DNA of 32,000 nucleotides from Xylanibacter ruminicola 23 (GCF_000025925.1 NC_014033.1:3030001-3062000); one strand, 5' to 3'; counted from the first letter of the stretch, positions 2 to 28,427 are shown. The notes: generated from the sequence alone by a model not told the origin. Program-made: numbers and translations.

Positions 2-109
2 AGTGGCGAGTTGCTGCACTTCCTGCCCGATGGCACCTTCGACTGGAAGGTAAGCACAGGCGATATACCCGCCCACGCAGCATTTTTATTTAAAACAACA
101 AAAAAATGA
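2..109 (+). CDS. 3' end of an upstream gene (partial, product unknown)
   Basis: Frame 2 is open from the window edge (...GELLHFLPDGTFDWKVSTGDIPAHAAFLFKTTKK*). The stop TGA at 107-109 overlaps the ATG at 106 of the next gene (ATGA coupling). Confidence 0.4.
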   Translation, partial: SGELLHFLPDGTFDWKVSTGDIPAHAAFLFKTTKK

Positions 110-4147: not shown

Positions 4148-4162
4148 AAGCTTAATAGATAT

Positions 4163-4960: not shown

Positions 4961-5032
4961 GGTGCAAAGATAGTAAAAAGTTTGGAAACAGTATCAAAAT
5001 TTGCAAACTTTTTTCTTTTGGCGAGTTTTATC

Positions 5033-5608: not shown

Positions 5609-5659
5609 GATAATATTTTGCTCTTTCTTATACTTTAGCTTGCAAAATAACAACTTTTT

Positions 5660-5690
5660 TTTGAGATAAACAAATTTTTTATTACCTTTG
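5660..5690 (+). promoter_or_regulatory. Bacteroidetes sigma-A type promoter for GH36 gene (-33 TTTG, -7 TAccTTTG)
   Basis: TTTG at 5660-5663 and TACCTTTG at 5683-5690 with a 19-nt spacer, 37 nt upstream of the ATG at 5727. Confidence 0.5.
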
Positions 5691-5726
5691 CGCTCAGATT
5701 TTTTAACTAATAACCGATTCAAAAAA

Positions 5727-7910
5727 ATGAAGAAGATTCTTTTTCTAGCGTTCCTTATGGTCTCGGCCTCTACGGCTTGGGCAAAACAGGTTGTTATCCA
5801 AACCAAGAACACCACGATGGTGCTTGATGTAGAAACGGGTAAACAACCACAGTATGTGTATTATGGTGCAAAACTAAGCGACTACGATTTGCAGAATCTG
5901 CAATCCCCTCGTGACGGACGTATGGATGCTTATCCTGCTTATGGCATGAACTGTCCTGCCGAGGCAGCTGTAGCCATGACCCATGCCGATGGCAATATGT
6001 CGACAGAGCTTTTTGCAACAGATGTAACCACACAAGGCTCTGTTACTCAGATTACGTTGAAAGATCCCAAATACCCTGTTCAGGTAGTGCTGTGCTATCA
6101 GGCACGTTTCGATGAAGATATGATTGAAACCTGGACAGAAATCAAAAACGGCGAGGCCAAACCCATCACTCTTACGCAATTTGCCTCTTGTTCACTGCCC
6201 ATCCGTCGCGGAAACGTATGGCTTTCGCACTTTGGCGGTTCGTGGGGCAACGAGGCTCGCTTGATTGAGGAGCCTATCCAGCTTGGACAGAAGGTGATTA
6301 AGAATAAGGATGGTGTACGCAATGCACATACCGATCATGCCGAAGTGATGTTCTCGCTCGATGGTAAAGGCCGGGAGAACAGCGGCGATGTGATTGGTGC
6401 CGCCCTCTGCTACTCAGGCAACTATCAGCTGAAAGTTGAGACCGATGACACAGAGTACCACTACTTCTTTGCTGGCATTAACCCCGATAACTCGGCCTAT
6501 CATCTTAAGAAAGGTGAGACATTCACCACGCCAAAGGTGGCATTCAGCTTCTCAAAGTGTGGTCTCTCAGGTGTATCGCGCAATTTCCACAAGTGGGGCC
6601 GCAAATATATGCTGGCTCACGGCAATAAAGAGCGTAAGATACTGCTCAACTCTTGGGAGGGTGTTTACTTCGACATCAACCAGCAGGGTATGGACCAGAT
6701 GATGGGCGATATAGCCTCGATGGGAGGCGAGCTCTTTGTGATGGACGATGGCTGGTTTGGCGTGAAATATCCTCGCAAGACCGACAACTGTGCCCTTGGC
6801 GACTGGGAGGTTGATAAAAACAAGCTACCCGAGGGTATCGAAGGTCTGCTTCGCGATGCCAAAAAGCACGGCATTAAGTTCGGCATATGGATTGAGCCAG
6901 AGATGACCAACTCGGTATCCGAACTCTACGATGCACATCCCGACTGGGTTGTAAAAGCACCAAAACGAGACGTAGTAAAAGGTCGTGGCGGCACGCAGCT
7001 GGTACTCGATCTGGCTAATCCAAAGGTGCAGGACTTTGTGTTCTCGATTGTAGATAACCTGATGACTAAATATCCTGAAATCGATTATATCAAGTGGGAT
7101 GCCAACATGGCCATCATGAATCATGGTTCGCAGTACCTCACCATGAACGATCAGAGTCATCTTTATATCGAATATCATCGTGGTTTCGAGAAGGTTTGCC
7201 AGCGTGTTCGTGCTAAGTATCCCAACCTTACCATTCAGGCCTGTGCCTCTGGTGGCGGTCGTGCCAACTGGGGTGTTCTGCCATACTTCGATGAGTTCTG
7301 GGTAAGCGATAATACCGATGCACTGCAGCGTATCTACATGCAGTGGGGTACCAGCTATTTCTTCCCCGCCATCGCAATGGCTTCACACATTTCGGCCACA
7401 CCTAACCACACCGTTTTCCGCACCACAGCGCTCAAATATCGTGTTGATGTAGCTATGAGTGGTCGCTTGGGTATGGAGATCCAGCCAAAGAATATGACTG
7501 ACGACGAGAAGGAACTCTGCCGTAAGGCTATCGCCGAGTACAAGCAGATTCGTCCTATCGTACAGTTTGGCGACATCTATCGCTTGGTTTCGCCTTACGA
7601 TAAGCAGGGATTGGCATCGCTCATGTATGTGGATGAGCAGAAGTCGAAGTCGGTATTCTTCTGGTGGAAAACCGAATCGTTCCAGAACGAGCATCTGCCA
7701 CGTGTAAAAATGGCTGGTCTCGATGCCTCGAAGAATTATAAGATTCACGAGTTGAACCGTATCGATCTGCGTCCGATGGATGTCGAGGGTAAGGTGTTCA
7801 GTGGTGCCTATCTGATGAATCACGGCCTTGAAATGCCTTATCGTAACGAGCCCGAATGGAGCAAGAAAAACGATTGGAGCAGTCGTGTGTTGTTGCTTGA
7901 GGCACAGTAA
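5727..7910 (+). CDS. Alpha-galactosidase, glycoside hydrolase family 36
   Basis: Signal peptide MKKILFLAFLMVSASTAWA. GH36 motifs FVMDDGWF, IKWDANM, CASGGGR and SDNTDA are present. Start moved from the track's TTG at 5688 to the ATG at 5727. Confidence 0.85.
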   Translation: MKKILFLAFLMVSASTAWAKQVVIQTKNTTMVLDVETGKQPQYVYYGAKLSDYDLQNLQSPRDGRMDAYPAYGMNCPAEAAVAMTHADGNMSTELFATDVTTQGSVTQITLKDPKYPVQVVLCYQARFDEDMIETWTEIKNGEAKPITLTQFASCSLPIRRGNVWLSHFGGSWGNEARLIEEPIQLGQKVIKNKDGVRNAHTDHAEVMFSLDGKGRENSGDVIGAALCYSGNYQLKVETDDTEYHYFFAGINPDNSAYHLKKGETFTTPKVAFSFSKCGLSGVSRNFHKWGRKYMLAHGNKERKILLNSWEGVYFDINQQGMDQMMGDIASMGGELFVMDDGWFGVKYPRKTDNCALGDWEVDKNKLPEGIEGLLRDAKKHGIKFGIWIEPEMTNSVSELYDAHPDWVVKAPKRDVVKGRGGTQLVLDLANPKVQDFVFSIVDNLMTKYPEIDYIKWDANMAIMNHGSQYLTMNDQSHLYIEYHRGFEKVCQRVRAKYPNLTIQACASGGGRANWGVLPYFDEFWVSDNTDALQRIYMQWGTSYFFPAIAMASHISATPNHTVFRTTALKYRVDVAMSGRLGMEIQPKNMTDDEKELCRKAIAEYKQIRPIVQFGDIYRLVSPYDKQGLASLMYVDEQKSKSVFFWWKTESFQNEHLPRVKMAGLDASKNYKIHELNRIDLRPMDVEGKVFSGAYLMNHGLEMPYRNEPEWSKKNDWSSRVLLLEAQ

Positions 7911-7927
7911 CTTAGGCTAAGAAAAAG

Positions 7928-7978
7928 GCGCAATATACATTCTTTTCATTAAAATAGGATGTATATTGCGCTTTTTTT
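7928..7978 (+). terminator. Rho-independent terminator after GH36 gene
   Basis: A 13-bp perfect stem, GCGCAATATACAT (7928-7940) / ATGTATATTGCGC (7959-7971), followed by T7. Confidence 0.75.
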
Positions 7979-7995
7979 CGTATTTTTGCAGCCGA

Positions 7996-10773
7996 ATGGA
8001 ACTACAACGAAGATTAGAACATTGGCTGATTACGCTGTTCATGCTTTTTGCTATGCAACTTTATGCCTTAGATGTGAAGCATTTTACTTTCTCACATCTG
8101 AGTATAGCTGATGGTGTGGATAATCAGCGTATATTTTCTGTTTGCCAAACCACATCTGGTGCCATTTGGTGGTCGTCTATGAAAGGCGTAGGTCGCTATA
8201 ATGGCTCGAAAGTAAGAATATACCGACTCGACGATGGTACGCCTTTCGCTCATCTTGGCGGGCGTGTTATTAAGATGGCCACTAACGATAAAGCCATTTA
8301 TGCTTTTGATAATCGTGGCTCCATCTATCTTTTCCAGTCAGTTCTTGATGGTTTTAAACCAGTAGCCAGCATCTCCAAGAAGCTGGGGCACGAGGTGGCA
8401 TTAAACGATATCCACGTAAAGGATGGCAACCTGTTCCTGGCCTTGCACGATGGTGTTTATCTGCTGAAGGACACCACACTTACCCAAGTGATGAAGGGAA
8501 CTTATGTAAACCAGATTGTACCTATGATGGGCCATCTGCTGTTCTGTGCCCGCGATGGTGTATACAATGAACGAGGCCAGCGATTGTTACCTTATAATGC
8601 TGAGTTCGGCTACTACGATGAAATGTCGGGCCGCTTATGGATTGGAGGTTACGAGAATGGTCTTCATATGGTAACCATTAGTCAGAATGGCAAGATTACT
8701 TCCGATGAGTTTGTGCGTATATCTGATCAGAATCTGTATCGTAATCCTATCCGTAGCATTTGTCCTTACGACGATGATACCATGCTGATCGGCATTGATG
8801 GACAAGGTGTTTATCAGATTAGTCGTGATGGTAGGGGCGGTTGCTCCTTGCTCTTCGATGCCAACGAGTCGGAGCATAGCATGTTGCATGGCAACGGCGT
8901 TTATGCCATGCTGGTAGATAGTTGGAAAAACATCGTGATAGGTACCTACTCTGGTGGTATCGACATCGCCCGTCCTATCAGCACTACCACAGCCATCTAT
9001 CAGCATCTGGCAAACAACCAGCAGAGTCTGCTCAACGATAATGTGAACATGGTGATGCCGCTTTCGGCTGACGTGTTGCTGATGGGTACCGATAATGGTA
9101 TTAGCATTAAGAACCTTACTACTGGGCAATGGCAGCATTGTTGTCAGGGTACAGTTGTGCTTAACGCCAGCAAAAAAGCCGATGGTAGTGTGCTGGTTTC
9201 AACCTATGGTAAAGGCGTTATCGAGATTGATAGTCGAGGCAATGTACGTCAGATATACACAAAAGACAATAGTTTTTTGAAAGACGACCATGTTTATGCC
9301 ACCTTATATGATAAGGATGGTGGTCTGTGGATAGGCTCTTTGAATGGCGATCTGGTATATAGTCCTGTATCGCAAATCAGTCAGAAACAAGCCGAATGTC
9401 GCAACTATCCAGTACACGATGTTCAAGCCATTACACAGCTCACTTCTGGACAGATTGTGGTTGGTACAGCCTTTGGACTTAAGCTGATTACACCTGGTAG
9501 CGCCGAGGTTAAGGAGTTAGACTATACACCTGCTGGTGTAACCGATGTAAACCCATTTGTAACACATCTGCTGGCTTCGGGCATGGAGTTGTGGATAGCT
9601 ACCGATGGTGGTGGCGTTTATGTTTACCATCTTGGCAAGCACGTCAGTCGACAGATAACTACAACCAACGGCCTTCCATCTAACTATGTACGCAGCTTGG
9701 TTAAAAGCCGCGACGGACGTATATGGATTGCTACGGACGAAGGTTTGGCTTTTGTAAAGTCGGGCGAAGGCGACAAGGTTATTAATGCCAATTACTGTTA
9801 TGGTTTTAATCGGGAGTACTCGCGTGGAGCAGCTCAGGTACTGCCCGATGGCGATATCGTATTTGGCTCAACTACAGGTGCCATCATCATTCATCCTGAG
9901 AATGTACAGCCCCTTAATTATACTGCCAGCATCACTTTCGTTGGTGTTAACTGCGATGTAGATTCGGATAAACTGCAGAATACAAAGGTGTTTAACCTGC
10001 TTAACCAAGGCAGGTTGAGTCTTTCTTACCGTCAGCGCACGTTCGATCTGCAGTTCGAGAGTGTAAACATGCGTAACCACTTCGATATCGTTTACCGCTA
10101 CAAGATGGGACGTGGCGAGTGGAGTAAACCCACCGACCAGCAGTATATACGCTTTGTTAATCTCGAGCCAGGCGAGCATCAGCTAACACTACAATGCCTC
10201 AGTCGTACAACAGGTACTGTGCTCGACTCCAAAACGCTGATTATTACAATTGCCCAACCTTGGTGGAGCTCGTGGTGGATGTGGTGCATCTATATTGCTT
10301 TGGTATTGTTGGCGTTCTATACCGCTTGGCAGGTATATAAACTGCACGAAAAGTACATGCGCCTGACCATCGATCATCTGAAGGCTACCAATGCTTCTAC
10401 ACCTGCATCAGTACCCGCTGCCGACGAGCCCGAAGAGGTGCAGGTTGCTGATAGCGATGAGGCAGAATCCGACTTTGTAGATAAGGCTACCCAACTGATA
10501 TCCGAACATCTTAGCGACACCGATTATTCTATTGACAGTCTTTGTCGCGAAATGGCTATGAGTCGTACACTGTTCTATGTAAAACTGAAGTCGTTTACAG
10601 GTAAATCGCCTCAGGACTTTATCCGTATCATCCGTTTGGAGCGTGCAGCCCAGATGCTGAGAAACGGACGTAGCGTATCAGATGCAGCTACACTTGCAGG
10701 CTTCGAAAATGCCAAGTATTTCAGTACAGTATTTAAGAAATACTTCGGCGTATCGCCCTCAAAATACAAGTAA
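7996..10773 (+). CDS. Membrane sensor-regulator: periplasmic beta-propeller/Y_Y_Y sensor, single TM helix, AraC-type HTH (HTCS-like but without kinase or receiver)
   Basis: Repeated propeller-like motifs (IWWSS, LWIGG, LWIGSL, LWIATDGG, IWIATDEG), then a Y_Y_Y-like block (YRYKMGRGEWSK). The TM helix is WWMWCIYIALVLLAFYTAWQVY. The C-terminal AraC HTH reads LCREMAMSRTLFYVKLK...AGFENAKYFSTVFKKYFGVSPSKY. ATG 7996 is preferred because the track start (TTG 7966) lies inside the terminator. Confidence 0.8.
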   Translation: MELQRRLEHWLITLFMLFAMQLYALDVKHFTFSHLSIADGVDNQRIFSVCQTTSGAIWWSSMKGVGRYNGSKVRIYRLDDGTPFAHLGGRVIKMATNDKAIYAFDNRGSIYLFQSVLDGFKPVASISKKLGHEVALNDIHVKDGNLFLALHDGVYLLKDTTLTQVMKGTYVNQIVPMMGHLLFCARDGVYNERGQRLLPYNAEFGYYDEMSGRLWIGGYENGLHMVTISQNGKITSDEFVRISDQNLYRNPIRSICPYDDDTMLIGIDGQGVYQISRDGRGGCSLLFDANESEHSMLHGNGVYAMLVDSWKNIVIGTYSGGIDIARPISTTTAIYQHLANNQQSLLNDNVNMVMPLSADVLLMGTDNGISIKNLTTGQWQHCCQGTVVLNASKKADGSVLVSTYGKGVIEIDSRGNVRQIYTKDNSFLKDDHVYATLYDKDGGLWIGSLNGDLVYSPVSQISQKQAECRNYPVHDVQAITQLTSGQIVVGTAFGLKLITPGSAEVKELDYTPAGVTDVNPFVTHLLASGMELWIATDGGGVYVYHLGKHVSRQITTTNGLPSNYVRSLVKSRDGRIWIATDEGLAFVKSGEGDKVINANYCYGFNREYSRGAAQVLPDGDIVFGSTTGAIIIHPENVQPLNYTASITFVGVNCDVDSDKLQNTKVFNLLNQGRLSLSYRQRTFDLQFESVNMRNHFDIVYRYKMGRGEWSKPTDQQYIRFVNLEPGEHQLTLQCLSRTTGTVLDSKTLIITIAQPWWSSWWMWCIYIALVLLAFYTAWQVYKLHEKYMRLTIDHLKATNASTPASVPAADEPEEVQVADSDEAESDFVDKATQLISEHLSDTDYSIDSLCREMAMSRTLFYVKLKSFTGKSPQDFIRIIRLERAAQMLRNGRSVSDAATLAGFENAKYFSTVFKKYFGVSPSKYK

Positions 10774-17086: not shown

Positions 17087-18451
17087 ATGATTACTAAGAA
17101 TATATCAAAATATCTCGCCATGTTCTTCATGGTTTGCGGCATGGCTGCTAATACAGCTTGCACATCTGATGAGGATCCGTTCTTCACGGCTGGCGAGGAC
17201 GATTATCCCCGTATCCTGAATACGGATATCCCCGAAGGTAAGGGTGGCGAGCCTGGCGTGCTCATGACCATCGAGCGCACCCAGAACTTCCAGTTCGACG
17301 TAATGGTTACCCCCGTTAAGTACACCACCGTTACCTGGCTTATCGACGATGAGCAGGTAGCCGAAGGTCTTTCTATCGACACACCTGTACTGGCTGGCGA
17401 GCACATCGTAAAGATTGTAGCAGCTACCACTAAGGGGCTTGAAACCTCACGTACCTGCAAGCTCGTTGTTCTGCCTGCCGAGGGCGATCCCTCACTGGCC
17501 AGCGACGGCAAATCACGTTGGCTCACTATCGGTAGCACCAAAACTATCGATTGCACCAATGCTACTAACGTAACCAAGGTGTTCGTGGGCAAGCAGGAGG
17601 CTAGCAACGTATCGTTTGCAAACGGAAAACTTACCTTTACTGTTCCCAGCATGGCCGAGGGCGAGTACACTGTTGTTATCGAGGCCGATGGCGCACGTTA
17701 TGGTTGCGGCGTATTCACAGTCAGCAACACCGAGTATGTTGATCCAGGCGTAAAGGAGACTGTACTCTGGGAGGGTAGCACCGAGATTAACTGGGGCGAT
17801 GCAAACGTTACTGTCTCAGCTGCCGATATGGCTAATGTGCCTGTAGGCGCTACCATCCGTTTGGTTTACGAAATGGCCGATATGCCTGATGGTTATCATG
17901 CCCTGCGTATCACCACACCTTGGTGGGGCGATAATGCCGAGGATCAGATCGTAGCTCAGTTCGACCTCACAGCCGACACACCAAACCCATTCGAGTTCAC
18001 CTACACCGAAGCCAACAAGGCAATCGTAGATGAGCGTGGAGGTATGCTCATCGTAGGTTATGGTTACAAGCTTACAAAAGTGGTTGCTTTAGAAAATGTA
18101 GCTCCTGCCGAGACCACCCTTTGGGAAGGCGGCATCGAGATTAACTGGGGCGATGCAAACGTTACTGTCTCAGCTGCCGATATGGCTAATGTGCCTGTTG
18201 GCGCTACTGTGCATGTTTACTACCAGATGGCCGATATGCCTGATGGCTATCATGCCCTGCGTATCACCACACCTTGGTGGGGCGATAATGCCGAGGATCA
18301 GATTGTAGCTCAGTTCGATCTCACAGCCGACACCGCTAACCCATACGACTTTACCTACACCGAAGCCAACAAGGCAATTGTAGATGAGCGTGGCGGTATG
18401 CTCCTTGTAGGCTACGGTTACAAGCTTACCAAGGTAACATTCTCGAAGTAA
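17087..18451 (+). CDS. SusE/F-position surface lipoprotein with Ig-like domains and two tandem 118-aa putative glycan-binding modules
   Basis: Lipobox NTAC followed by the acidic stretch TSDEDP. It occupies the third position after SusC/SusD. Its C-terminal half is an internal tandem repeat. Confidence 0.7.
   Translation: MITKNISKYLAMFFMVCGMAANTACTSDEDPFFTAGEDDYPRILNTDIPEGKGGEPGVLMTIERTQNFQFDVMVTPVKYTTVTWLIDDEQVAEGLSIDTPVLAGEHIVKIVAATTKGLETSRTCKLVVLPAEGDPSLASDGKSRWLTIGSTKTIDCTNATNVTKVFVGKQEASNVSFANGKLTFTVPSMAEGEYTVVIEADGARYGCGVFTVSNTEYVDPGVKETVLWEGSTEINWGDANVTVSAADMANVPVGATIRLVYEMADMPDGYHALRITTPWWGDNAEDQIVAQFDLTADTPNPFEFTYTEANKAIVDERGGMLIVGYGYKLTKVVALENVAPAETTLWEGGIEINWGDANVTVSAADMANVPVGATVHVYYQMADMPDGYHALRITTPWWGDNAEDQIVAQFDLTADTANPYDFTYTEANKAIVDERGGMLLVGYGYKLTKVTFSK
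17756..18448 (+). repeat. In-frame tandem duplication (2 x 354/339 nt) inside the SusE/F-like gene
   Basis: Unit 1 is 17756-18109 and unit 2 is 18110-18448, a period of 354 nt (118 codons). There are identical runs of 62 nt and 56 nt (for example GAGATTAACTGGGGCGATGCAAACGTTACTGTCTCAGCTGCCGATATGGCTAATGTGCCTGT). Confidence 0.95.
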
Positions 18452-18824: not shown

Positions 18825-18860
18825 TGCAAAAAAATCATGCCACCATTAATGCTGGCATGA
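18825..18860 (-). terminator. Terminator of MACPF gene
   Basis: On the minus strand, an 8-bp stem (TCATGCCA/TGGCATGA, 18835-18842 / 18853-18860) is followed by T7 (complement of 18825-18834). Confidence 0.6.
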
Positions 18861-18949
18861 GTACTTATTAGATATGACTCCAGTACGCCTTAGGAAGTAC
18901 TGCAGTCCTCTTACTAAAGGACTCGAGTACTCCTACGGAAGGATTTTCA

Positions 18950-19999
18950 TTACAACTGATGGCTATGTATATATGCTTTGACAGCTCGCTGTACCTCAGT
19001 ACTTTTTGTTTTGTTGGTTATCAGTTGGTAGATCGGTATTACATCGTCGCCAGTCAGCAGTACGAGCGATAGATTATCGTTATTTGCTTGGTTCCACCAT
19101 TCAGCAATAGCTTTTGATGATTTCTCTTTGCTGAGAGGTAATTGAGCGAATTCAGTTGAAAGCCTTTGCGTGTTGCCACCATGACATTGTACTGATAGTG
19201 CGCCACCTTTTGTAGCTTTCGAATCGATAATTTTCCAATAAACGGGGTTATATACCTCGTTCATACGACGGAACATACTACATAAGAAGCAATCGTCATC
19301 GTTTGTATTTTCTTTCAGGCCAGAACGATAGAGTGATAGGATATTTATTCCCATAAGTGCACATTTGAGTACATGGGTGCCAAATCGTTCTACAATACGT
19401 TCAGCGCTTTCGTTTTCAAGTGCTTGTTTGAAATCATCAGTCAGGATACGGTCAATATATCGTTCAGTCGGTATCAGCAGTTTCTTTTCATATACGGCGT
19501 ATCTGTCCATATACATCATAAACGAGTAGTTATCGCTTCGCTCCTTGCTTTCCTTAAACAAAGGATTGCTTGTAAAAGTACCAGCGAAATATACGTCGCC
19601 TGGTTCGCCCTCGAGTGTAAATCCTTCTGCTCTACGCAAACCATCCAAGAAAGTCCATGAATACCCAATGCCACTTACCAGACTTCCTGTTCCGCTACTG
19701 GCCACAATAGATGTCATCTCGTCTGGTTCTATTTTGTTCAGGTCGATCACATTCTCGCGCAGGCATTCGTTGCTAAGATATGGCCCCGTTATATCGTAAC
19801 CTGAGCCCAGATATTCTTTTGCAGCAAGAGGCATATCGGCCGATAGGTTGGTGATGGTTTCCTCTTCGGGTACAGCAACTTCGCCCTTGTTAGTAGGGTC
19901 GTTATTATCTACGATATCTTCATTATTACTGCTGCAAGAGACGAGAGAGAAGGCAGTAAGCGCAATACATATTGTTCTCCTGAAATTAATTGTAATCAT
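18950..19999 (-). CDS. MACPF (perforin-like) domain lipoprotein, BSAP-like candidate pore-forming toxin
   Basis: Lipobox FSLVSC followed by SSNNEDIVDNND. The MACPF entry motif is YLGSGYDITG. The signature-like stretch FGTHVLKCALMGI compares with [YW]G[TS]H[FY]x6GG. The C-terminal ...VIPIYQLI is typical of bacterial MACPFs. Confidence 0.7.
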   Translation of the reverse strand: MITINFRRTICIALTAFSLVSCSSNNEDIVDNNDPTNKGEVAVPEEETITNLSADMPLAAKEYLGSGYDITGPYLSNECLRENVIDLNKIEPDEMTSIVASSGTGSLVSGIGYSWTFLDGLRRAEGFTLEGEPGDVYFAGTFTSNPLFKESKERSDNYSFMMYMDRYAVYEKKLLIPTERYIDRILTDDFKQALENESAERIVERFGTHVLKCALMGINILSLYRSGLKENTNDDDCFLCSMFRRMNEVYNPVYWKIIDSKATKGGALSVQCHGGNTQRLSTEFAQLPLSKEKSSKAIAEWWNQANNDNLSLVLLTGDDVIPIYQLITNKTKSTEVQRAVKAYIHSHQL

Positions 20000-20108: not shown

Positions 20109-20990
20109 CTATATTCTAAAATACTTTAGCAGTTCTTTATACATATCTTGGGCTGTAAGACAAGTATCTGTAAGGTAGCCGTTAATATGTCCCCATTCTC
20201 GCAGACCTCTATAATAGAATATCTTCAAATCATCTGTAATAATGAATGGAACAATATTATTGGCTAGGCACTCCTTAAACATCAGCAATCGACCAACGCG
20301 ACCATTACCATCTTGGAAAGGATGAATCTGTTCAAGCCGCACATGGAAGTCAAGAATATCTTCGAATGATTTCTTGCCTTTATGATTATATTCATCCAAT
20401 AGGGTTTTCAACTGCTTGTGTACATCCTCTGGTGCACAAGTATCCTGTCCACCAACCTCGTTTGGTAATCGTTTATAATCGCCAACGGCAAACCAATCCT
20501 TACGACTATCAGAAGTTCCTGATTTCAGCAACAGATGCAGATGCTTTACCAGATTTTCTGTCAGTTTATCCTCTGTATGATCGATGATATAATCGATACA
20601 ACGGAAGTGATTAACTGTCTCTACAACGTCATCCACATTTATAGCGCTGTCAGTAACACCAATCGTATTAGTTTCAAAAATATATCGAGTCTGATCGTGG
20701 GTAAGCTTGCTACCTTCTATATGATTAGAGTTATAAGTAAGGTCTATCTGGGTGCGATGATAAATACCACCTTTTAGTTTCGATGCCTTCTGCTCTCTCA
20801 ACGCCTTAAGAAGTGGCGATACCTTTTTATTTTTCTCACCACGCTTGGGCAAAGCAGCATCTGCAGGAATATTCCAAGTCTTTCCTGTTAAGAAAGCCCC
20901 CTCTATCTTCCCTTGGGCACAATAATTTCGGGCCGTACGCTCAGAAATACCATACTTTTCTGCAAACTTACTAACTGATATATACTCCAT
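20109..20990 (-). CDS. Fic-family AMPylase with N-terminal HTH DNA-binding domain and intramolecular inhibitory motif (class II-like)
   Basis: Fic motif HPFQDGNGRVGR matches HxFx(D/E)GNGRxxR. The inhibitory motif SNHIEG matches (S/T)xxxE(G/N). The N-terminus ISVSKFAEKYGISERTARNYCAQGKI is a MerR/excisionase-type HTH. Confidence 0.85.
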   Translation of the reverse strand: MEYISVSKFAEKYGISERTARNYCAQGKIEGAFLTGKTWNIPADAALPKRGEKNKKVSPLLKALREQKASKLKGGIYHRTQIDLTYNSNHIEGSKLTHDQTRYIFETNTIGVTDSAINVDDVVETVNHFRCIDYIIDHTEDKLTENLVKHLHLLLKSGTSDSRKDWFAVGDYKRLPNEVGGQDTCAPEDVHKQLKTLLDEYNHKGKKSFEDILDFHVRLEQIHPFQDGNGRVGRLLMFKECLANNIVPFIITDDLKIFYYRGLREWGHINGYLTDTCLTAQDMYKELLKYFRI

Positions 20991-21160: not shown

Positions 21161-21336
21161 TTGTTCCCAAGGTGGGAATGGATTGTTCCCTAACTGGGAA
21201 TAAAATGTTCCCTAGTTGGGAATAAAGTGTTCCAAAGAAGGGAATATCCCCTAAGGAATAGGTCGAACACCTTGTAGGCATAATCTGAATCACTTGTAGA
21301 CATAATCCGAATGACTCATAGAAATAACTCGAATAC
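21161..21336. repeat. Array of eight phased 22-bp tandem units (five palindromic TGTTCCC-N-TGGGAATA type, three CTTGTAGNCATAATCNGAATNA type)
   Basis: Unit starts are 21161, 21183, 21205, 21227, 21249, 21271, 21293 and 21315, an exact 22-bp register. The first four units each contain the inverted repeat TTCC(C)/GGGAA. Confidence 0.85.
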
Positions 21337-21370: not shown

Positions 21371-21677
21371 TCTCTCATCTCTCAACAAATCGCTCAAAAC
21401 CCGCATAAACACTAGGGATTCGAGCGATGAGAGATTCTAAAAATCCCTCCCTAATCTCTCACTAATCTCTCACCCGATCCCTCCAGACACACACACCTCA
21501 GCCAGATTTTAATATTTAAAGAAAAAACCGAAAATAATAGCCAAAAAACTTGCAAAACTTCCTGTGAGGGTTTCCTGAGAGATTGTTGAGAGATTAGGGA
21601 GAGATTCCAAAAATCTCTCACCCATCTCAAATCCTTTGTACACGGGCGTTTCGAGAGATTTCTTGAGAGATGAGAGA
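21371..21677. repeat. Element R2: 307-bp paralogue of R1 with all words switched to TGAGAGATT/AATCTCTCA
   Basis: The 29-nt terminal inverted repeat, 21371-21399 / 21649-21677, matches at 25 of 29 positions. Hairpins at 21428-21461 and 21599-21619. The unpaired cores shared with R1 are GCATAAAYACTRGGGAT and AAATSCTTTGTA. Confidence 0.8.
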
Positions 21678-21700
21678 TTTTTTAATATGATATAACAAAA

Positions 21701-21862
21701 GAAAGCCGCAACCCTGAAAAGGTTGCGGCTCTATTTATATAAGAGGTGTATCGCTTATGCGAATGGATTCTCTGTTGGGTAGTAATCGCCCTTGGGGAAG
21801 TTGTAGTCGATCTCGTCAACGGGGATACCCATGTACTTGAGAACCTCCCAGAGATACTTACC
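21701..21862 (-). pseudogene. Orphan duplicate of the terminator plus last ~36 codons of the isomerase-like gene (copy A of a direct repeat)
   Basis: Aligns with 25737-25893 at a constant offset of 4031 nt in the coding part. There is a 67-nt perfect block (21748-21814 = 25779-25845), then 5 mismatches in 48 nt. Similarity stops abruptly at 21862/25893. Confidence 0.85.
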
Positions 21863-21897
21863 CTGATGGCCGAGACAATTTTTCCGCCAATTATTTC

Positions 21898-21925
21898 TTT
21901 GTTTCAGAAAAAATCGTTAACTTTG
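21898..21925 (+). promoter_or_regulatory. Candidate promoter of the kinase module (-7 TAACTTTG)
   Basis: TAACTTTG at 21918-21925 and TTTG at 21898-21901, 46 nt upstream of the ATG at 21972. Confidence 0.45.
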
Positions 21926-21971
21926 CCAACCTAAAGTCAAACCATATAAAGTCACAGGTGGTGATTAGATA

Positions 21972-22526
21972 ATGAAACAAACAGAATTACTTTGCAAAAC
22001 TATTGAGCAAGCGCTTCATCAGGAGATACGCACGCCAAAAGATTTCGACCAGCTGAGAGAACGCATCTTTCTGCGATTACATCAGATGCTTAGTGCCACA
22101 ACCCTTAAACGTGTGTGGGGCTACTTAGACAATGAGGGCGAACCAAGCGTGAGAACACTCGATACCTTAGCCCAGTTCATTGGTTACAAGAACTATCAGG
22201 CGTTTTGCATGCACTCTCCTGCTGATGGCATGGAGCCAAGTAATCTGGCCATGAATCGCCATCTGGATGTAAATGCCGACCTTGCTGTGGGAGAATGCTT
22301 AACACTCTATTGGCTACCTGACAGAGTGTGTCATATCCGCTATGAGGGCGATATGCGTTTTGTGGTTACAGCATCAGAGAACACTCGTCTGAAAGCAAAC
22401 GATACCTTTTGCTGTAGTCTGATTATCGAAGGTGAGCCACTATATCTTAGTCAGTTGCAACAGGGCGATCAGGAACAAACCAATTATGTTTGTGGCAAAC
22501 GGGGAGGCATTAGATATGAGCGATGA
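21972..22526 (+). CDS. Hypothetical 184-aa protein, possible N-terminal HTH-like region; translationally coupled to the kinase
   Basis: ATG start with a promoter-like box upstream. The N-terminal helical segment ...SATTLKRVWGYLDNEGEPSVRTLDTLAQFIGYKNYQAFC resembles HTH modules seen at N-termini of Bacteroidetes signalling proteins (from memory). The stop (22524-22526) overlaps the kinase ATG (22516) by 11 nt. Confidence 0.55.
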   Translation: MKQTELLCKTIEQALHQEIRTPKDFDQLRERIFLRLHQMLSATTLKRVWGYLDNEGEPSVRTLDTLAQFIGYKNYQAFCMHSPADGMEPSNLAMNRHLDVNADLAVGECLTLYWLPDRVCHIRYEGDMRFVVTASENTRLKANDTFCCSLIIEGEPLYLSQLQQGDQEQTNYVCGKRGGIRYER

Positions 22527-24741
22527 TGCTTCAAGCTACATAGTAAGTGATTTCGAGGGACTCAGCTCCACCTTCTCCGAGATGGTTGAATTGCCATCTA
22601 CGGGCTATTGTCGTTTGTACAAAGCCAAACGCTATGGGCGATGGTTTCTGCTCAAATGTCTGAAGCAGGAACTATCATCCGATACCGCCTATCAACAGTT
22701 GCTTCGCAAGGAATTCGAGATTATGATGCGCTTGCAGCATCCATCTATCATGCAAGCCATTGGTATGGAGGATGTTTTGATAGCTGACGGGCATTACGAA
22801 CGATGCCTCATAGCCGAATGGATTGATGGCAAGACGCTGGCTCAATATCTTGAGGCCAATCCCAGTCGTAGCGATCGCCAACGCATAGCTATCGATTTGG
22901 CAGAGGCTTTGGCCTACATTCATCACCAACAAGTGGTACATCGCGATCTGAAGCCCTCAAACATCATGATTACCTACAACGGCAGTTATGTGAAGATTAT
23001 CGACTTCGGACTAGCTGATACCGATAGTCATGCCATACTGAAACAACCTGCTGGCACATTGAAGTATATGGCTCCAGAGCAAGCCACAAAAGCTCTACCA
23101 GATGTTCGTAACGATATCTATTCGCTGGGAGTCATACTTCTGGAGATGGATATATATAAAAAGGTGGCTGAGCGATGTCTACGCCCCATCCATCAACGCT
23201 ATCAGAATATGGACGATCTGCTTGCCGCCCTTCATCAGCAGCGCAAGTGGCATTTCAAGCTTATGGCATCAGCCATGATAGCCCTGGTTGTCATCTTTGC
23301 TTTGATAGCAAAAGTGAATGCGATAAGTCATAAAGCCTCTGATTTAGAGAAACATACGGCTGAGCTTAATTTTCAGGTGAAAGTGCTGAACCACGAGATT
23401 ATTGGCTTCGAGGACCCTGAGGCAAAGCAAAAATGCATCAGCCATTGGGATTATGATCACGATGGTGAACTGAGCTATCAAGAAGCAGCCTCAGTAAAGT
23501 CGCTTGGCGATGTGTTTACAAAGGACACGCTGTTGCGATCGTTCCCAGAACTGGAACACTTTACTGGTCTTAACGAAATTGATGCTTGTGCCTTTTGGGA
23601 TTGCACCCACCTGGAGTCAATCCGCATACCTCGAACGGTACGTTTTATCCGCCAGAGTGCCTTTCGCCATACAGGTCTGCAGATGATAACCATCCCCAGT
23701 AGTGTCGTAGCTATAGGCGACCATATACTGGAAGAGTGTCCTGAGCTTGAAACAGTCATCTTCGAATCAGTATTACCCAACACCAACGATGGTGCTCATC
23801 ATCTGGTTGACTGCCCCAAACTCTCTGCTATCTTTGTGCCAGAGTTCTATATGACAGAAACGAATGAGAAGAAATCTTGGCAGAGTCTCAAACCATATAT
23901 CCATAAGTATATAGAGTTTCGCGATCCGGCAGTTAAGTCCGTCTGTGTTAGTCATTGGGATAGTAATGGCGATGGCGAATTGTCTATAGACGAGGCTATG
24001 GCTGTTAACTCGCTTGGTGGTGCTTTTTCTGGAAATACGGCTATACGCAGCTTTGATGAGTTGCGCTATTTCACAGGCTTGAAAGAGATAGAGGCAAATA
24101 CTTTTAACGGTTGTTTAAATCTAAAGTCTGTACAACTGCCTCGCTCTGTAGAAACGCTTGGCGAGAATGCCTTTCTGAAATGCGACTTTAACGCGTTTTA
24201 CATCCCATCTGGCGTCACTCATATTGCCTCTACAGCCTTGGGTGAAAACCATCATCTGTGTAAGGTAGAAATAAGTGCCGATAATCCCGTTTATGATAGT
24301 CGCGAAGATTGCAATGCCATTATAGAAACGGCTACCAATCAGATGGTTACAGGTAGTGCTACAGCCTTTATACCCAATAGCGTAACGAGTCTCAGCGACG
24401 AATGCTTCAACTGGTTTGATCGCGATGAATTGGTCATCCCTTCTCAGCTAACCCATATAGGTACTTGGGCCTTGACCTGTATCTTCCAACGGATATATTG
24501 TATGTCGGACGTACCCCCATTTTATCGACCAGATACTCGCGAGTCCTTTTGGGAGCATCTGCCAGAAATCTATATTCCTTATGGCTCTACAGAAGCCTAT
24601 TGCCATGCAGAAGGTTGGAAGCTATTAACACATCGTCTTCATGAATTCCCAGCTAAACCAGCACCCGTAACAACAGATTTTTCATACTATTTTAAAACTT
24701 GGACCAATTTGGACCAATTAAGTTTCCTGAATTTCGATTAA
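22516..24741 (+). CDS. Transmembrane Hanks-type Ser/Thr protein kinase with extracytoplasmic EF-hand-like loops and BspA-type leucine-rich repeats
   Basis: Kinase motifs are the VAIK-like LLKCLK, HRDLKPSN, DFG and YMAPE. TM helix LMASAMIALVVIFALIAKV lies at about 23263-23316. The two DxDxDGxLxxxE loops are DYDHDGELSYQE (23449-23484) and DSNGDGELSIDE (23959-23994). Each loop is followed by LRR_5-like units (F..C..L.SI.IP.SV..I...AF). Confidence 0.8.
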   Translation: MSDDASSYIVSDFEGLSSTFSEMVELPSTGYCRLYKAKRYGRWFLLKCLKQELSSDTAYQQLLRKEFEIMMRLQHPSIMQAIGMEDVLIADGHYERCLIAEWIDGKTLAQYLEANPSRSDRQRIAIDLAEALAYIHHQQVVHRDLKPSNIMITYNGSYVKIIDFGLADTDSHAILKQPAGTLKYMAPEQATKALPDVRNDIYSLGVILLEMDIYKKVAERCLRPIHQRYQNMDDLLAALHQQRKWHFKLMASAMIALVVIFALIAKVNAISHKASDLEKHTAELNFQVKVLNHEIIGFEDPEAKQKCISHWDYDHDGELSYQEAASVKSLGDVFTKDTLLRSFPELEHFTGLNEIDACAFWDCTHLESIRIPRTVRFIRQSAFRHTGLQMITIPSSVVAIGDHILEECPELETVIFESVLPNTNDGAHHLVDCPKLSAIFVPEFYMTETNEKKSWQSLKPYIHKYIEFRDPAVKSVCVSHWDSNGDGELSIDEAMAVNSLGGAFSGNTAIRSFDELRYFTGLKEIEANTFNGCLNLKSVQLPRSVETLGENAFLKCDFNAFYIPSGVTHIASTALGENHHLCKVEISADNPVYDSREDCNAIIETATNQMVTGSATAFIPNSVTSLSDECFNWFDRDELVIPSQLTHIGTWALTCIFQRIYCMSDVPPFYRPDTRESFWEHLPEIYIPYGSTEAYCHAEGWKLLTHRLHEFPAKPAPVTTDFSYYFKTWTNLDQLSFLNFD

Positions 24742-24799
24742 TTTTGCACCGAAATTAAATTTTTCGAACATATATTAATAACTTAATTCAATTCAAAGT

Positions 24800-25711
24800 A
24801 TGAAAACAAAATTCATGTCAGTTTCGATGAGTTTACTCATCGCAGGTTTCACATTGTGCGCTTGTACAGAAGGTCTTGGTGGTGTAGGTGACAACCCAAT
24901 TACTCCAGAGACTCCAACTACTCCTGATGAGCCAGAGACACCAACAGAGATTAAGGGTATTCTTTCTGAGATTTCGGTTGAATCTGAGGGCAATAACGGC
25001 GTTCTTGCTTTCACTTATGGTGATGATGGTAAGGTTACAAAAGCTGCTTATAAAAGCGTAGATCGATTTACAGGTGATTCTTACGAAGGATTATCATGCA
25101 CCTTTACCTATGAAACTGATAAAATAACCGTAAAGGCCAAAAGAGACGATAATGTAGAGACTAAGGTCTATACCCTTACCGATGGTGTTGTTACAAAATA
25201 TGCAGATGATTATGGCTACGATGAGTTTACCTATAAGGATGGTAAACTGATTGGTTTCAAGGCCTGGGAGAAAAATGAAGAGTCAGGTGAAATGGAAACT
25301 GATGAATTATTTGATTTTTCTTGGAATGAAAATGTTATTGCTAGTTACGAAAGATATGAACTGAATGACCAAGAAGAAAAAGAAGATGTAAATAATTACA
25401 CCGTAACCTATGGTACAGTTAAGGCTGGCGTTCTTGCTAATATCTTCTTCTATGGTGGTGGAGTCTTTGAGCTTCCTTTCTATGTAGAGGATTTGGCTGA
25501 ATCAGCTCCTATCTTCGACAAACTTGGCGCAATGCCTGAGTATCTGCCTGAGAAGTTGGTTAGAACTTGGAAAGAAGAAGGAAATGATGTCACAAGAACC
25601 ATTACTGCAAAATACACCTTGGATAGCAACAACCTTGTTACTAAGGTCGTTGTCAAGGTTGTTGAAGGCGAAAATACCGAAGAAACAACTTACAACCTTA
25701 AGTGGAAGTAA
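24800..25711 (+). CDS. Hypothetical lipoprotein with Pro/Thr-rich linker and repeated beta-hairpin (YD-like) motifs
   Basis: The signal/lipobox is LIAGFTLCAC and the linker is NPITPETPTTPDEPETPTE. The repeated patterns are FTYGDDGKVTK, YTLTDGVVTKY, FTYKDGKLIGF and KYTLDSNNLVTKV. Confidence 0.6.
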   Translation: MKTKFMSVSMSLLIAGFTLCACTEGLGGVGDNPITPETPTTPDEPETPTEIKGILSEISVESEGNNGVLAFTYGDDGKVTKAAYKSVDRFTGDSYEGLSCTFTYETDKITVKAKRDDNVETKVYTLTDGVVTKYADDYGYDEFTYKDGKLIGFKAWEKNEESGEMETDELFDFSWNENVIASYERYELNDQEEKEDVNNYTVTYGTVKAGVLANIFFYGGGVFELPFYVEDLAESAPIFDKLGAMPEYLPEKLVRTWKEEGNDVTRTITAKYTLDSNNLVTKVVVKVVEGENTEETTYNLKWK

Positions 25712-25736
25712 TCCTATCACAATTTATATAAATCAA

Positions 25737-25770
25737 GAAAGCCGCAACCTTGAAAGTTGCGGCTTTATTA
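25737..25770. terminator. Bidirectional hairpin terminator between lipoprotein gene and isomerase-like gene (copy B)
   Basis: A 9-bp stem, AGCCGCAAC (25740-25748) / GTTGCGGCT (25756-25764), flanked by an A-run and a T-run. Confidence 0.55.
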
Positions 25771-25785
25771 TTTAGAATGTATCGC

Positions 25786-27282
25786 TTATGCGAATGGATT
25801 CTCTGTTGGGTAGTAATCGCCCTTGGGGAAGTTGTAGTCGATCTCCTCAACGGGGATGCCCATGTACTTGAGAATCTCCCACAGGTACTTACCAGCGTGA
25901 TCGAACATCACAGCGCAGTGGTGTGGGTAGTGCTTCTCGATGAGCACGTGACGATAGAAACGGCTCATGTTCTTAACACCGAAGATACCGATAGAACCGA
26001 ATGAGCGTGTAGCTACAGGAATAACCTCACCCTGAGCGATGTAAGCGCGGAGCTTGGTGTCGGCTGTGCTCTGCAGACGATAGATAGTAGCCTTGCCTGG
26101 CTTGATGTCGCCCTCGAGAGTACCGTTTGTTACCTCTACAGGCAGAGCGCGTGCCATGATGCGCTGGAAGCACATGCTGCAGTTGCAAACCTTAGAAGAA
26201 GCGGTGTTACCACAGTGGAAGCCCATGAAGATCTCCTTGTCTGTGTACTCGTCGCACAGGAACTTCTTGCCCTTGATGCTCTCTTCGTACATATCGTTAG
26301 GAACGGTGTTGTTGATATCGAGCAACGTAACGGCATCCTCTGTGATGCAAGTACCGATGAACTCAGACAGTGTTCCGTAGATATCAACCTCGCAGCTAAC
26401 GGGGATACCGCGGCTGGTGAGACGGCTGTTTACGTAGCAAGGAACGAAACCAAACATGGTCTGGAATGCAGGCCAGCACTTGGTGGTGAGTGATACGAAC
26501 TGGCGGCAGCCCTTGTGAGCCTCGATCCAGTCGGTCAGAGTGAGCTCATACTGAGCGAGCTTAGGCAGAACAGAAGGAATCTTGTTGCCAGCACCCAGCT
26601 CATTAGCCATATCCTTCACTACATCGTCGATACGTGGATCGCCCTGATGCTTCTGGAACGACTCGAGCAGGTCGAGCTCTGAGTTCTCCTCGATTTCTAC
26701 GTCGAGATCATACAGGGCACGGATAGGAGCGTTACAAGCCAGGAAATTGTTTGGACGAGGACCGAAGCTGATAATCTTCAGGTTCTGCAGACCAACGATA
26801 GCGCGAGCGATGGGCAGGAACTCGTGGATGAGCTCAGCGCAGTGGTCAGCATCACCAACTGGCTCCTCTGGGATATAAGCACGAGTCTTACGCAGAGACA
26901 GAGCGTGGCTGGCATTCAGCATACCACAGTAAGCATCACCACGACCATCAATCAGGTCGTTCTGAGTTTCCTCGGCAGCAGCACAGAACATAGCTGGGCC
27001 ATTGAAATACTTAGCCAGCATGGTCTCAGAAATCTCAGGACCGAAGTTACCAAGATATACACAGAGTGCATTACATCCTGCCTTATTGATATCCTCGAGG
27101 GCCTGCTGCATGTGGATTTCGCTCTCAACAATGCAGATAGGGCACTCGTAGATGCCATCCTTACCGAATTTCTTCTCATACGCAGCGATAACAGCCTTAC
27201 GACGGTTAACAGCTAATGACTCAGGAAAACAGTCGCGAGATACAGCGACGATTCCAACTTTAATTTTAGGTACGTTGTTCAT
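25786..27282 (-). CDS. L-fucose/L-arabinose isomerase-family protein (sugar isomerase-like, exact substrate unknown)
   Basis: A 498-aa cytosolic protein with ATG start and strong core-like codon usage. The overall sequence recalls the fucose-isomerase-like family, but I cannot cite a diagnostic motif. Confidence 0.5.
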   Translation of the reverse strand: MNNVPKIKVGIVAVSRDCFPESLAVNRRKAVIAAYEKKFGKDGIYECPICIVESEIHMQQALEDINKAGCNALCVYLGNFGPEISETMLAKYFNGPAMFCAAAEETQNDLIDGRGDAYCGMLNASHALSLRKTRAYIPEEPVGDADHCAELIHEFLPIARAIVGLQNLKIISFGPRPNNFLACNAPIRALYDLDVEIEENSELDLLESFQKHQGDPRIDDVVKDMANELGAGNKIPSVLPKLAQYELTLTDWIEAHKGCRQFVSLTTKCWPAFQTMFGFVPCYVNSRLTSRGIPVSCEVDIYGTLSEFIGTCITEDAVTLLDINNTVPNDMYEESIKGKKFLCDEYTDKEIFMGFHCGNTASSKVCNCSMCFQRIMARALPVEVTNGTLEGDIKPGKATIYRLQSTADTKLRAYIAQGEVIPVATRSFGSIGIFGVKNMSRFYRHVLIEKHYPHHCAVMFDHAGKYLWEILKYMGIPVEEIDYNFPKGDYYPTENPFA

Positions 27283-27430
27283 ATTAAAATGAGTTTGTTA
27301 ATAAAGTAATGATTTTCGTTTCAAGCCACAAAATTATAATTTAATCTCGAAACAACCAAGAAATTTAGAAAAAATAACAGCGGATGATACAATTCTAATA
27401 TATGGATGATACATTTAAAACATTTTTTGT

Positions 27431-27438
27431 TACCTTTG
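27431..27438 (+). promoter_or_regulatory. -7 box (TACCTTTG) upstream of DUF3667-like gene
   Basis: TACCTTTG sits 8 nt upstream of the ATG at 27447 and inside the longer track ORF (ATG 27402). This favours the downstream start. Confidence 0.4.
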
Positions 27439-27446
27439 CAAACGTA

Positions 27447-28427
27447 ATGGAACAGTTAAGAGAGAAATACGAAAAGTTCAAGGCGTGGCAGGTAAGACCT
27501 CACGAGGTTAAAAAAATGACTGCCGAGAAGCATGTGTGCGCCACTTGCCAAACAGAATTTCATGGCAACTTCTGCCCCCGATGCGGACAGAAAGCTGTCA
27601 TCGGTCGTTACTCGTTCAAATCGGCATTTTTGCTGTTTTTGGACGTTTGGGGCCTGGGCAATCGTGGCATGTTCCGAACCATTCGCGACTTGCTGTTGCG
27701 TCCAGGTTACATGATTCGCGACTATCTGAGTGGCATGCAGATGGCGTATTTCCCTCCGTTCAAGATGTTCTTCCTGTCCATAGCCTTATTGGTACTTGTA
27801 CAGTCGGGCCTGAATATCAGGATGGAGAATGTCATCAGTCAGAGCAAGGAAGTAATTACGCAAAACCTTGACGAAACATCCAGCAACCTTGACAAAATGG
27901 CCGACAACATGAGCGAAGCCGCTCCACCTGACACCATACAAATTAACGAAAAAAAATTAGCTATCGAGAAAGGCGAAGATGGCAATTCCATAAAAGTGAA
28001 TGGGAAATATTTCGGTTTGAAATTCGCAGAAACTCTCCAGAAGTTTTTCCGTTGGATCACAGACAACCAGACAGCTTCTCAGTTCCTTTTACTACTCGTT
28101 TTGTCGGCCCCAATGTACCTTCTTTTCCGCCACAATAAAAAAATTCCAGACATACACTACTCTGAGTTCTTTGTCTCGATGGTTTACATCACAAATTTAA
28201 TGACACTCATCAGTATTGTTGGAGACTTTTTCTCTCCTGGAAACGTCTTAATGAGTATAGTAGCTGGCGCCGCGAGCATCGTACCCCTGAAACAGCTATA
28301 TGGTTACAGCTATATCAAGACATTCTTTAAGGTTGCACTATCATTTGTGCTATTGTTTTTGATGGCTATCTTATTGGCAGGTATTTTTGCTGCTTTGGCA
28401 TTCCTATACGTTCTATATATATTGTAG
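27447..28427 (+). CDS. Zinc-ribbon membrane protein, DUF3667-like
   Basis: The N-terminal CxxC-x10-CxxC motif (CATCQTEFHGNFCPRCGQK) is followed by several hydrophobic helices. The alternative start is 27402. Confidence 0.6.
   Translation: MEQLREKYEKFKAWQVRPHEVKKMTAEKHVCATCQTEFHGNFCPRCGQKAVIGRYSFKSAFLLFLDVWGLGNRGMFRTIRDLLLRPGYMIRDYLSGMQMAYFPPFKMFFLSIALLVLVQSGLNIRMENVISQSKEVITQNLDETSSNLDKMADNMSEAAPPDTIQINEKKLAIEKGEDGNSIKVNGKYFGLKFAETLQKFFRWITDNQTASQFLLLLVLSAPMYLLFRHNKKIPDIHYSEFFVSMVYITNLMTLISIVGDFFSPGNVLMSIVAGAASIVPLKQLYGYSYIKTFFKVALSFVLLFLMAILLAGIFAALAFLYVLYIL

Follow-up and report, generated by a model that had tools for sequence, protein, structure and literature searches.

A cassette of three genes lies behind an isomerase gene in the chromosome of Xylanibacter ruminicola 23, in a stretch of 32,000 nucleotides (GCF_000025925.1 NC_014033.1:3030001-3062000) that is referred to here as the window and in which all positions are counted from the first letter. 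The isomerase gene, which contains an L-fucose-isomerase C-terminal domain, is intact, and the cassette is bounded by two copies of its 3' end and terminator, called copy A (left) and copy B (right) (Table 1). The cassette genes, or cargo, code for an HTH-like protein, a protein kinase with leucine-rich repeats (LRR) and a putative lipoprotein. The original prediction, made on this DNA without database searches, had placed an HTH-like protein, a Ser/Thr kinase and a lipoprotein between the repeats, and domain scans and gene calls agree with it. Over its 96 N-terminal residues the HTH-like protein shares 45% identity with the N-terminus of a 287-residue SRA-domain protein. The kinase, whose start (22486) was adopted from the gene call in locus L081 (compared loci are designated by L numbers), belongs to a large Prevotella family with 1924 relatives. 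Upstream of the first gene, TAACTTTG fits what we take to be the Bacteroidota -7 box, TAnnTTTG, and is a putative promoter box.

The coding-side parts of the two copies (repeat D1, 21747-21862 and 25778-25893) are 96% identical in a repeat search and lie 4031 nt apart. Portions of the terminators (21690-21719 and 25726-25755) are 87% identical with a spacing of 4036 nt, the difference between the two spacings reflecting small indels in the terminator region. The exact core of 67 nt occurs twice in the window and was matched in none of 100 shuffles. To its right, 5 mismatches are found in 48 nt before the similarity between A and B falls, in the pairwise alignment, at 21862/25893. No third copy of the repeat, no tRNA target and no known RNA family above threshold was found in the window. 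Each copy contains a G+C-rich hairpin that T runs flank at either end and that is readable on both strands, and the copy B terminator could in this way serve both the lipoprotein gene and the isomerase gene. The intact gene ends in copy B, whose coding part, 25786-25904, is native-type throughout in this genome, and copy A is an orphan. The repeats had been described as lying at 21701-21862 and 25737-25893, with an offset of 4031 nt, a 67-nt core and indels in the terminators, copy B being the end of the intact gene and copy A an orphan stub; repeat search, alignment and the 498-residue gene at 25786-27282 confirmed this description. The abrupt end proposed at 21862/25893 holds for the similarity between A and B but not for the stub itself, since isomerase-derived sequence in copy A extends to 21873. 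The final 11 nt are an allele different from that of copy B, and the isomerase genes of other species match copy A to the same position, 11 nt past the end of the A-B similarity. At least 10 independent assemblies, among them CP071890.1, a record of chromosome size, show this arrangement, which is thus not an assembly artefact; the window is also 100% identical to contig BPTT01000001.1 of GCA_019973335.1.

The isomerase locus was taken from 80 species-level genomes and aligned to the window. In X. ruminicola Ga6B6 (L002) the site is empty: the sequence corresponding to window position 18941 is joined to that of 25739 through 28 nt and a single terminator, and both the terminator and the gene 3' end are native. 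In X. ruminicola D31d (L005/L084) a left flank of the Ga6B6 type leads straight into copy A, followed by the cargo, copy B and the isomerase gene. The Ga6B6 junction matches the left flank and terminator of the D31d copy A except for a few substitutions. Alignment with related genomes, which the original prediction had proposed as a search for empty sites, therefore gives an empty site in one strain and a site occupied at exactly that place in another. A second copy of the isomerase 3' end was found in only one of the 80 species representatives, D31d, and no other element uses this 3' end as a site in the 80 species.

Copies A and B of 11 cargo-bearing loci were aligned with the empty sites, and 17 sites were scored as native (n), after Ga6B6, or as element-type (E), after L034. 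All copy A sequences pass from n to E and all copy B sequences from E to n. Every copy B has essentially one terminator, AAAGCCGCAACCTTGAAAGTTGCGGCTTTATTATTTAGAATGTAT, which resembles that of L034. Every copy A ends in the E-type sequence CCCAGAGATACTTACCCTGATGGCCGAG, then ACAATTTTTCC, and the joint with the cargo, GGCCGAG/ACAATTTTT, is essentially constant. The E-type end of the stub, CCCAGAGATACTTACCCTGATGGCCGA / CCCTGATGGCCGAA, is a natural allele in six species representatives (L017, L034, L036, L042, L067 and L076). The copy A terminator is always local and exists in at least four versions among the loci; those of D31d and L082 differ from the Ga6B6 empty-site terminator by isolated substitutions only. 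In D31d, once the first marker (a private substitution of Ga6B6) and the marker beyond the stub are omitted, copy A reads nnnnnnEEEEEEEEE and copy B EEEEEnnnnnnnnnnn, so that the foreign and native parts are reciprocal. In L089 copy A is E at all markers except one and copy B is n throughout. The position of the switch differs among genomes (Table 1). Copy B switches at or before the switch of copy A, leaving a short tract that is native in both, and in nine out of nine readable copy B sequences the E tract is confined to the first ~60 nt of the gene 3' end, inside the 119 nt of the stub. These reciprocal hybrids point to a crossover within the isomerase 3' end, and the varying switch points, together with the lack of a recombinase, to homology-driven rather than site-specific recombination. 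As in Campbell insertion-duplication, the repeats are a duplicated homologous target, the gene is restored and the two repeats are reciprocal hybrids.

Table 1. Features of the cassette and the adjoining isomerase gene, and positions at which the repeats switch between native (n) and element-type (E) sequence
Feature	Position	Strand	Remarks
Copy A, terminator part	21701..21754		hairpin 21704-21730; 'local' type, varies with genomic background
Copy A, orphan isomerase 3' stub	21755..21873	-	stop codon and ~39 codons; native-type to ~21814, E-type 21815-21873
Perfect core, 67 nt	21748..21814		= 25779-25845; crossover or conversion interval for this genome
Microhomology GGCCGA, 6 nt	21868..21873		illegitimate joint between isomerase stub and cargo
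Cargo upstream region	21874..21971	+	conserved in all stub-bearing and stub-free contexts; contains TAACTTTG at 21918-21925
HTH-like protein, 184 residues	21972..22526	+	no Pfam match of its own; N-terminal domain paralogous to the N-terminus of HTH-like/SRA-domain proteins
Protein kinase with C-terminal BspA-type LRR	22486..24741	+	751 residues; Ser/Thr-type Pkinase domain
Putative lipoprotein	24800..25711	+	303 residues; weak similarity to DUF4595
Copy B, terminator part	25737..25785		hairpin 25738-25766; 'element' (E) terminator, resembles that of L034
Intact isomerase gene	25786..27282	-	Fucose_iso_C family (L-fucose-isomerase C-terminal domain), 498 residues
Switch point, L089 and L085	stop codon		
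Switch point, window and L082	offsets 39-60		
Switch point, D31d	offsets 72-96		

The outer end of the stub is of another nature. It is a 6-nt overlap common to the E-type isomerase and the cargo upstream region: homology with E-type isomerase genes stops at 21873, and homology with contexts that lack the stub (L092, L093, L095, L099) starts at 21868. One such context is formed by contigs carrying what is referred to as the HTH287 cluster (L092, L093, L095, L096), where the cargo has a different upstream sequence and stands divergent beside genes for the SRA-domain protein of 287 residues (HTH287) and for PEGA, BACON, DUF285/LRR and sigma-70 proteins. L092 was one of the two contigs matched by a metagenome scan with the 25 nt right of the joint, and its sequence left of GGCCGAG is unrelated to the isomerase. 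In L093 and L095 (L094 continuing further) the 184-residue protein gene and the kinase gene have 95-97% nucleotide identity to window 21868-24776. The other stub-free context, L099, shows MACPF, Fic and DUF2442 genes, the cargo, an E terminator and the isomerase gene, with no copy A. L099 and the HTH287-cluster contigs have 104 nt in common left of GGCCGAG, and this sequence is native to the cargo in both. The possibility that the HTH287-cluster upstream sequence is a degenerate isomerase stub was rejected, its local alignment score of 20 being reached by 68 of 500 shuffles. Since the same cargo has a different upstream sequence in two stub-free contexts, the joint between stub and cargo is derived and illegitimate. 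The arrangement in L099 further shows that cargo and E terminator can adjoin the isomerase gene without any duplication.

The lineage from which the E-type sequences came can be approached through L034, in which terminator and 3' end are both of the E type. Genes of the HTH287-cluster contigs (sigma-70, a 197-residue protein, DUF6078 and VapE-like) are found there 0.7-4 kb downstream of the isomerase gene, which places the HTH287 cluster in the same chromosomal neighbourhood of an E-type lineage. L034 may be a deletion derivative of the HTH287-cluster arrangement, but between the terminator and the sigma-70 gene it has a different gene, phosphoribosyltransferase-like by eye. The HTH287-cluster contigs stop just past the kinase gene; their match to the window is lost at 24776 and does not reach the lipoprotein gene. 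Searches with homologues of the 287-residue protein (P0010) and with kinase relatives (P0127, P0130, P0134) returned no contig spanning the HTH287 cluster and the isomerase gene; they returned other loci of the same operon family, and L099.

The cassette has also passed between lineages. L083, L085 and L088 have a different left neighbourhood (MutS and other genes), and their leuS is only 83-84% identical to that of the window, against 93-97% for cargo and isomerase up to ~27776. L085 is 96.7% identical to the window over 21738-27776 and 83.0% in leuS; for L083 the values are 95.3% and 93.5% across cargo and isomerase gene and 84.3% in leuS. In L085 copy A adjoins a left flank that is the native isomerase flank of strain KHT3. 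The high identity of cargo and isomerase and the KHT3 flank together indicate that the cassette was imported into that lineage along with the isomerase gene, the left crossover falling inside copy A. The orphan stub works as a homology arm. Relative to L083, L085 has an inversion of the whole block that separates mutS from copy A (~3000-9800 in each), with RNase_T, Fic, VapE-like, DUF6078 and OMP beta-barrel genes.

No recombinase or transposase domain was found by Pfam and NCBIfam scans in the cargo or in the other scanned genes of the 32-kb window; for SusC and SusD the result is that for their counterparts in L081, which have only SusC/SusD domains. This bears out the earlier statement that no integrase is present. 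Nor does a recombinase adjoin the cassette in the contexts of 11 related occupied loci. The cargo genes start 98 nt past the joint and stop 25 nt short of the copy B repeat (25737), margins that leave no room for a lost integrase gene. The cassette ends have no inverted repeats, and the duplication, of ~170 nt, is allelic and not identical, unlike that of a transposon or insertion sequence. Collections of known plasmids, phages and viral contigs gave no match to similar DNA, and a scan of viral contigs with the cargo-side sequence beside the joint gave 0 matches. By comparison, operons made of a small HTH-like protein, an LRR kinase and then variable surface proteins are common at unrelated Prevotella chromosomal sites. 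The cargo looks like such an ordinary chromosomal operon that was captured, rather than like a decayed mobile element.

Taken together, these observations favor, with a probability of roughly 0.55, an insertion-duplication scar that would have been produced by the general recombination of the host and not by a dedicated integrase. The following course is proposed. In another Prevotella lineage, as far as can be read from the sequences, the operon would have adjoined an E-type isomerase gene and its terminator, and an illegitimate joint at GGCCGA would have fused the last 119 nt of this isomerase gene to the operon upstream region. The product would be a unit of 4,031 bp comprising the cargo, the E terminator and the E 3' stub, the simplest form of which is a circle. 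As comparison of the loci shows, a homologous crossover within the ~170 nt of 3' end and terminator then put this unit behind a resident isomerase gene, yielding a copy A with local terminator, native 3' end and E stub and a copy B with E terminator and native gene; the isomerase gene remains intact, only its terminator being exchanged. Copy A has afterwards acted as the left homology arm: the cassette is found behind at least four local terminators and left contexts and has entered KHT3-like genomes together with the isomerase gene. In the other direction, the 67-nt core offers host recombination enough length to remove the cassette again and restore an empty site. We infer the circular intermediate, and hence Campbell integration, from this arrangement. 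The idea that divergent flanks around a perfect core betray a single recombination of a circular DNA into the chromosome is thereby supported by the reciprocal hybrids and by the empty and occupied sites. Where the original prediction had left the choice between site-specific and homology-driven recombination, the variable switch points, the lack of a recombinase and a site otherwise unused speak for the latter and not for the former.

Several points weigh against this interpretation. The donor, in which the cargo would be contiguous with an E-type isomerase gene, is pieced together and not seen in one piece, the body of the isomerase gene in L099 being non-E. No circular form was found among the assembled contigs: the two contigs of the metagenome scan are not circular, and L106, whose 4,086 nt (4031 + 55) had suggested a circular assembly, proved to be an assembly break at the repeats, with no overlap between its ends. 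A single founding event, with later gene conversion or with erosion by recombination with DNA of empty-site strains, could also explain the variety of switch points; such recombination can only extend n tracts, so that the same pattern of switches may result. A copy B that switches at or before copy A fits several integrations or a single founder alike.

A course without any circle is the most serious alternative, although we consider it clearly less probable. An L099-like donor with an E-type isomerase gene would have undergone a microhomology-mediated tandem duplication, unequal exchange between GGCCGA sites 4.03 kb apart giving the order cargo, E terminator, stub, cargo, E terminator, isomerase; a linear double crossover, on the left in the stub and on the right in the isomerase 3' end, would then have carried the cassette into the recipient. 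The same joint and the same hybrid repeats are used, L099 shows the required order of cargo, E terminator and isomerase without duplication, and L083 and L085 show a double crossover of the linear style (left in copy A, right near 27776-28100). Yet neither a second cargo copy nor a lipoprotein gene and E terminator ahead of copy A is seen at any locus, and the E tracts of copy B (9/9) never exceed the stub though a double crossover would permit it, an argument that is weak if there was a single founder. A site-specific integrative element or its remnant, with an attachment core in the isomerase 3' end and a tyrosine or serine recombinase lost or located elsewhere, is improbable. Direct repeats containing a gene 3' end, with empty sites in relatives, are the classic signature of integrase-driven islands; relics of mobile elements (Fic/HTH_17, the flanks of a VapE-like gene) adjoin the cassette; and the H47 island of Escherichia coli excises and integrates without a recombinase of its own (PMC3191183). 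However, neither the cassette nor the scanned genes of the window provide an own or adjacent recombinase of either type or room for a lost one, the exchange is not at a single fixed core position, the stub meets ordinary chromosomal DNA at its outer end through a microhomology joint instead of ending as an element would, and no other element duplicates the site in the 80 species. The argument from variable switches is strong but not absolute, as later gene conversion could blur a fixed crossover point. The suggestion that the cassette is a remnant or is mobilized in trans therefore finds little support: the cargo looks captured from a chromosome, and a trans-acting integrase is unlikely given neither a recombinase nor a fixed exchange point. 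The original prediction had named a larger ancient tandem duplication of the isomerase gene as the case that would speak against an insertion boundary; in such a scenario the whole gene would have been duplicated, copy A would have decayed and the cargo would have been inserted later. The shared orientation of the two copies and the truncation of copy A would fit it, but the joint that ends the stub is sharp, the adjoining 2.9 kb on the right recur at 95-98% identity in contexts lacking isomerase sequence there, the sequence upstream of the cargo in the HTH287 cluster has no isomerase similarity, the stub has a foreign allele on its right and the local one on its left, and most related species have a single copy. 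The sharp joint and the stub-free cargo contexts contradict this scenario, which is scarcely credible.

A bolder version of homology-driven insertion is doubtful but deserves mention. Stub, cargo and terminator may form a self-propagating 'homology-arm cassette' without recombinase, repeatedly looping out as 4,031-bp circles and, through host recombination alone, re-entering the isomerase 3' ends of other Prevotella lineages. If so, it would represent an H47-like parasitic strategy in Bacteroidota, and the different switch points and the left contexts, at least four in number, would be separate integrations.

The surroundings of the cassette and the cargo itself show further rearrangements. 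Left of copy A, a separate 2.76-kb indel (18945 to ~21700) carries two minus-strand genes, one MACPF/BSAP-like (18950-19999) and one of the Fic/HTH_17 type (20109-20990). Ga6B6, D31d and L082 lack this segment, and L086, L087, L089 and L099 have it; L090 has it without most of the Fic gene, with a crossover within the terminator hairpin itself. Its right edge falls inside the copy A terminator, and just where it begins, the intergenic flank (18860-18945) is filled with short AGTACT-containing repeats (GGAAGTACTGCAGTCC and similar) that are common to Ga6B6 and D31d. Four tandem units of 22 nt with the palindrome TGTTCCC-N5-GGGAAT, the fourth degenerate, lie at 21161-21248, ~170-260 nt upstream of the Fic/HTH_17 start, and look like putative protein-binding sites. 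A 102-nt inverted repeat at 21371-21677, 75% complementary and rich in GAGAGATT, represents both flanks of the VapE-like primase gene of L083 and L088 (7048-8367; L083 region 6882-8472); in the window this gene is missing between 21556 and 21559 and only its inverted flanks remain. In the cargo, the gap between kinase and lipoprotein genes (24766-24800) is a second breakpoint with three different continuations, namely that of the window, that of D31d, L083 and L091 (~350 extra nt and a lipoprotein of 306 residues) and that of L095, which diverges at 24776; the cargo is thus itself a mosaic. The 184-residue protein is 100% identical in all loci read, while the surrounding DNA is only 95-98% identical, and it is indexed, unchanged, in 1,562 blocks of a public assembly collection. 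This suggests a conservation unusually strong for an accessory gene. The rest of the window is ordinary chromosome, with leuS and a polysaccharide-utilization locus (hybrid two-component regulator, GH5, SusC, SusD). After SusD, a gene of 454 codons contains an internal direct repeat of 317 nt (17765-18081 and 18119-18435, 89% identical) that codes for two copies of one protein domain.

The value of the locus lies in an unusually complete reconstruction of an insertion. It shows at single-nucleotide resolution how an accessory operon may enter and spread among rumen Prevotella and Xylanibacter with no mobility gene, the requirements being one microhomology joint and crossovers in ~170 nt of a conserved gene end, with the stub as a portable homology arm. 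The cassette is a member of a very large, unstudied Prevotella family of operons with an HTH-like protein and an LRR kinase. A caution also follows: direct repeats of a gene 3' end are usually taken as proof of an integrase-driven island, which they are not here.

Among known systems, homology-facilitated illegitimate recombination takes in DNA by means of one homologous anchor and one microhomology joint, normally with replacement or loss of recipient DNA and without duplication of the anchor. The locus resembles it in that a homologous exchange and a microhomology joint of a few bases import foreign DNA, but the duplication at this locus requires either a circular molecule or sister-chromosome exchange. 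With integrase-driven islands at the 3' ends of tRNA, tmRNA and protein genes it shares repeats that hold the target 3' end, a replacement 3' end that keeps the gene functional, and empty and occupied sites among strains. Unlike them it has no integrase, no fixed crossover, a microhomology joint as 'element end' and a common chromosomal operon as cargo. The E. coli microcin H47 island is small, has extensive imperfect direct repeats and no recombinase of its own, and is found with several hybrid repeat sequences, which arise as one or another segment of identity serves for the exchange; for mobility it presumably depends on the host (PMC3191183; PMC5426353). Its excision and integration were shown experimentally, without RecA and with none of the known K-12 recombinases involved (PMC5426353; PMC3191183). 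Extensive imperfect direct repeats, the lack of a recombinase gene and several alternative hybrid junctions are also found in the present cassette, which, in contrast with H47, is known from sequence alone and in which a housekeeping-type gene supplies the repeats with its 3' end, their origin being traceable to the allele of another lineage. The locus also behaves like a Campbell-type insertion-duplication by a single, homology-driven crossover, as known for non-replicating circular DNA or suicide plasmids: the flanking direct repeats are the duplicated homology and are reciprocal hybrids of resident and incoming sequence, the target gene stays intact because the incoming fragment holds its 3' end, and recombination between the repeats can reverse the event. 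Unlike its laboratory counterpart, it is a natural event in the chromosome of a rumen Bacteroidota, with a circle that we infer from sequence; the homology spans only ~170 nt, with alleles that differ at 16 diagnostic sites within ~130 nt, and what came in was not a plasmid but captured chromosomal DNA, closed by a microhomology joint of 6 nt. Overall, the locus illustrates a known process cleanly and with good documentation, and does not represent a new type of mobile element.

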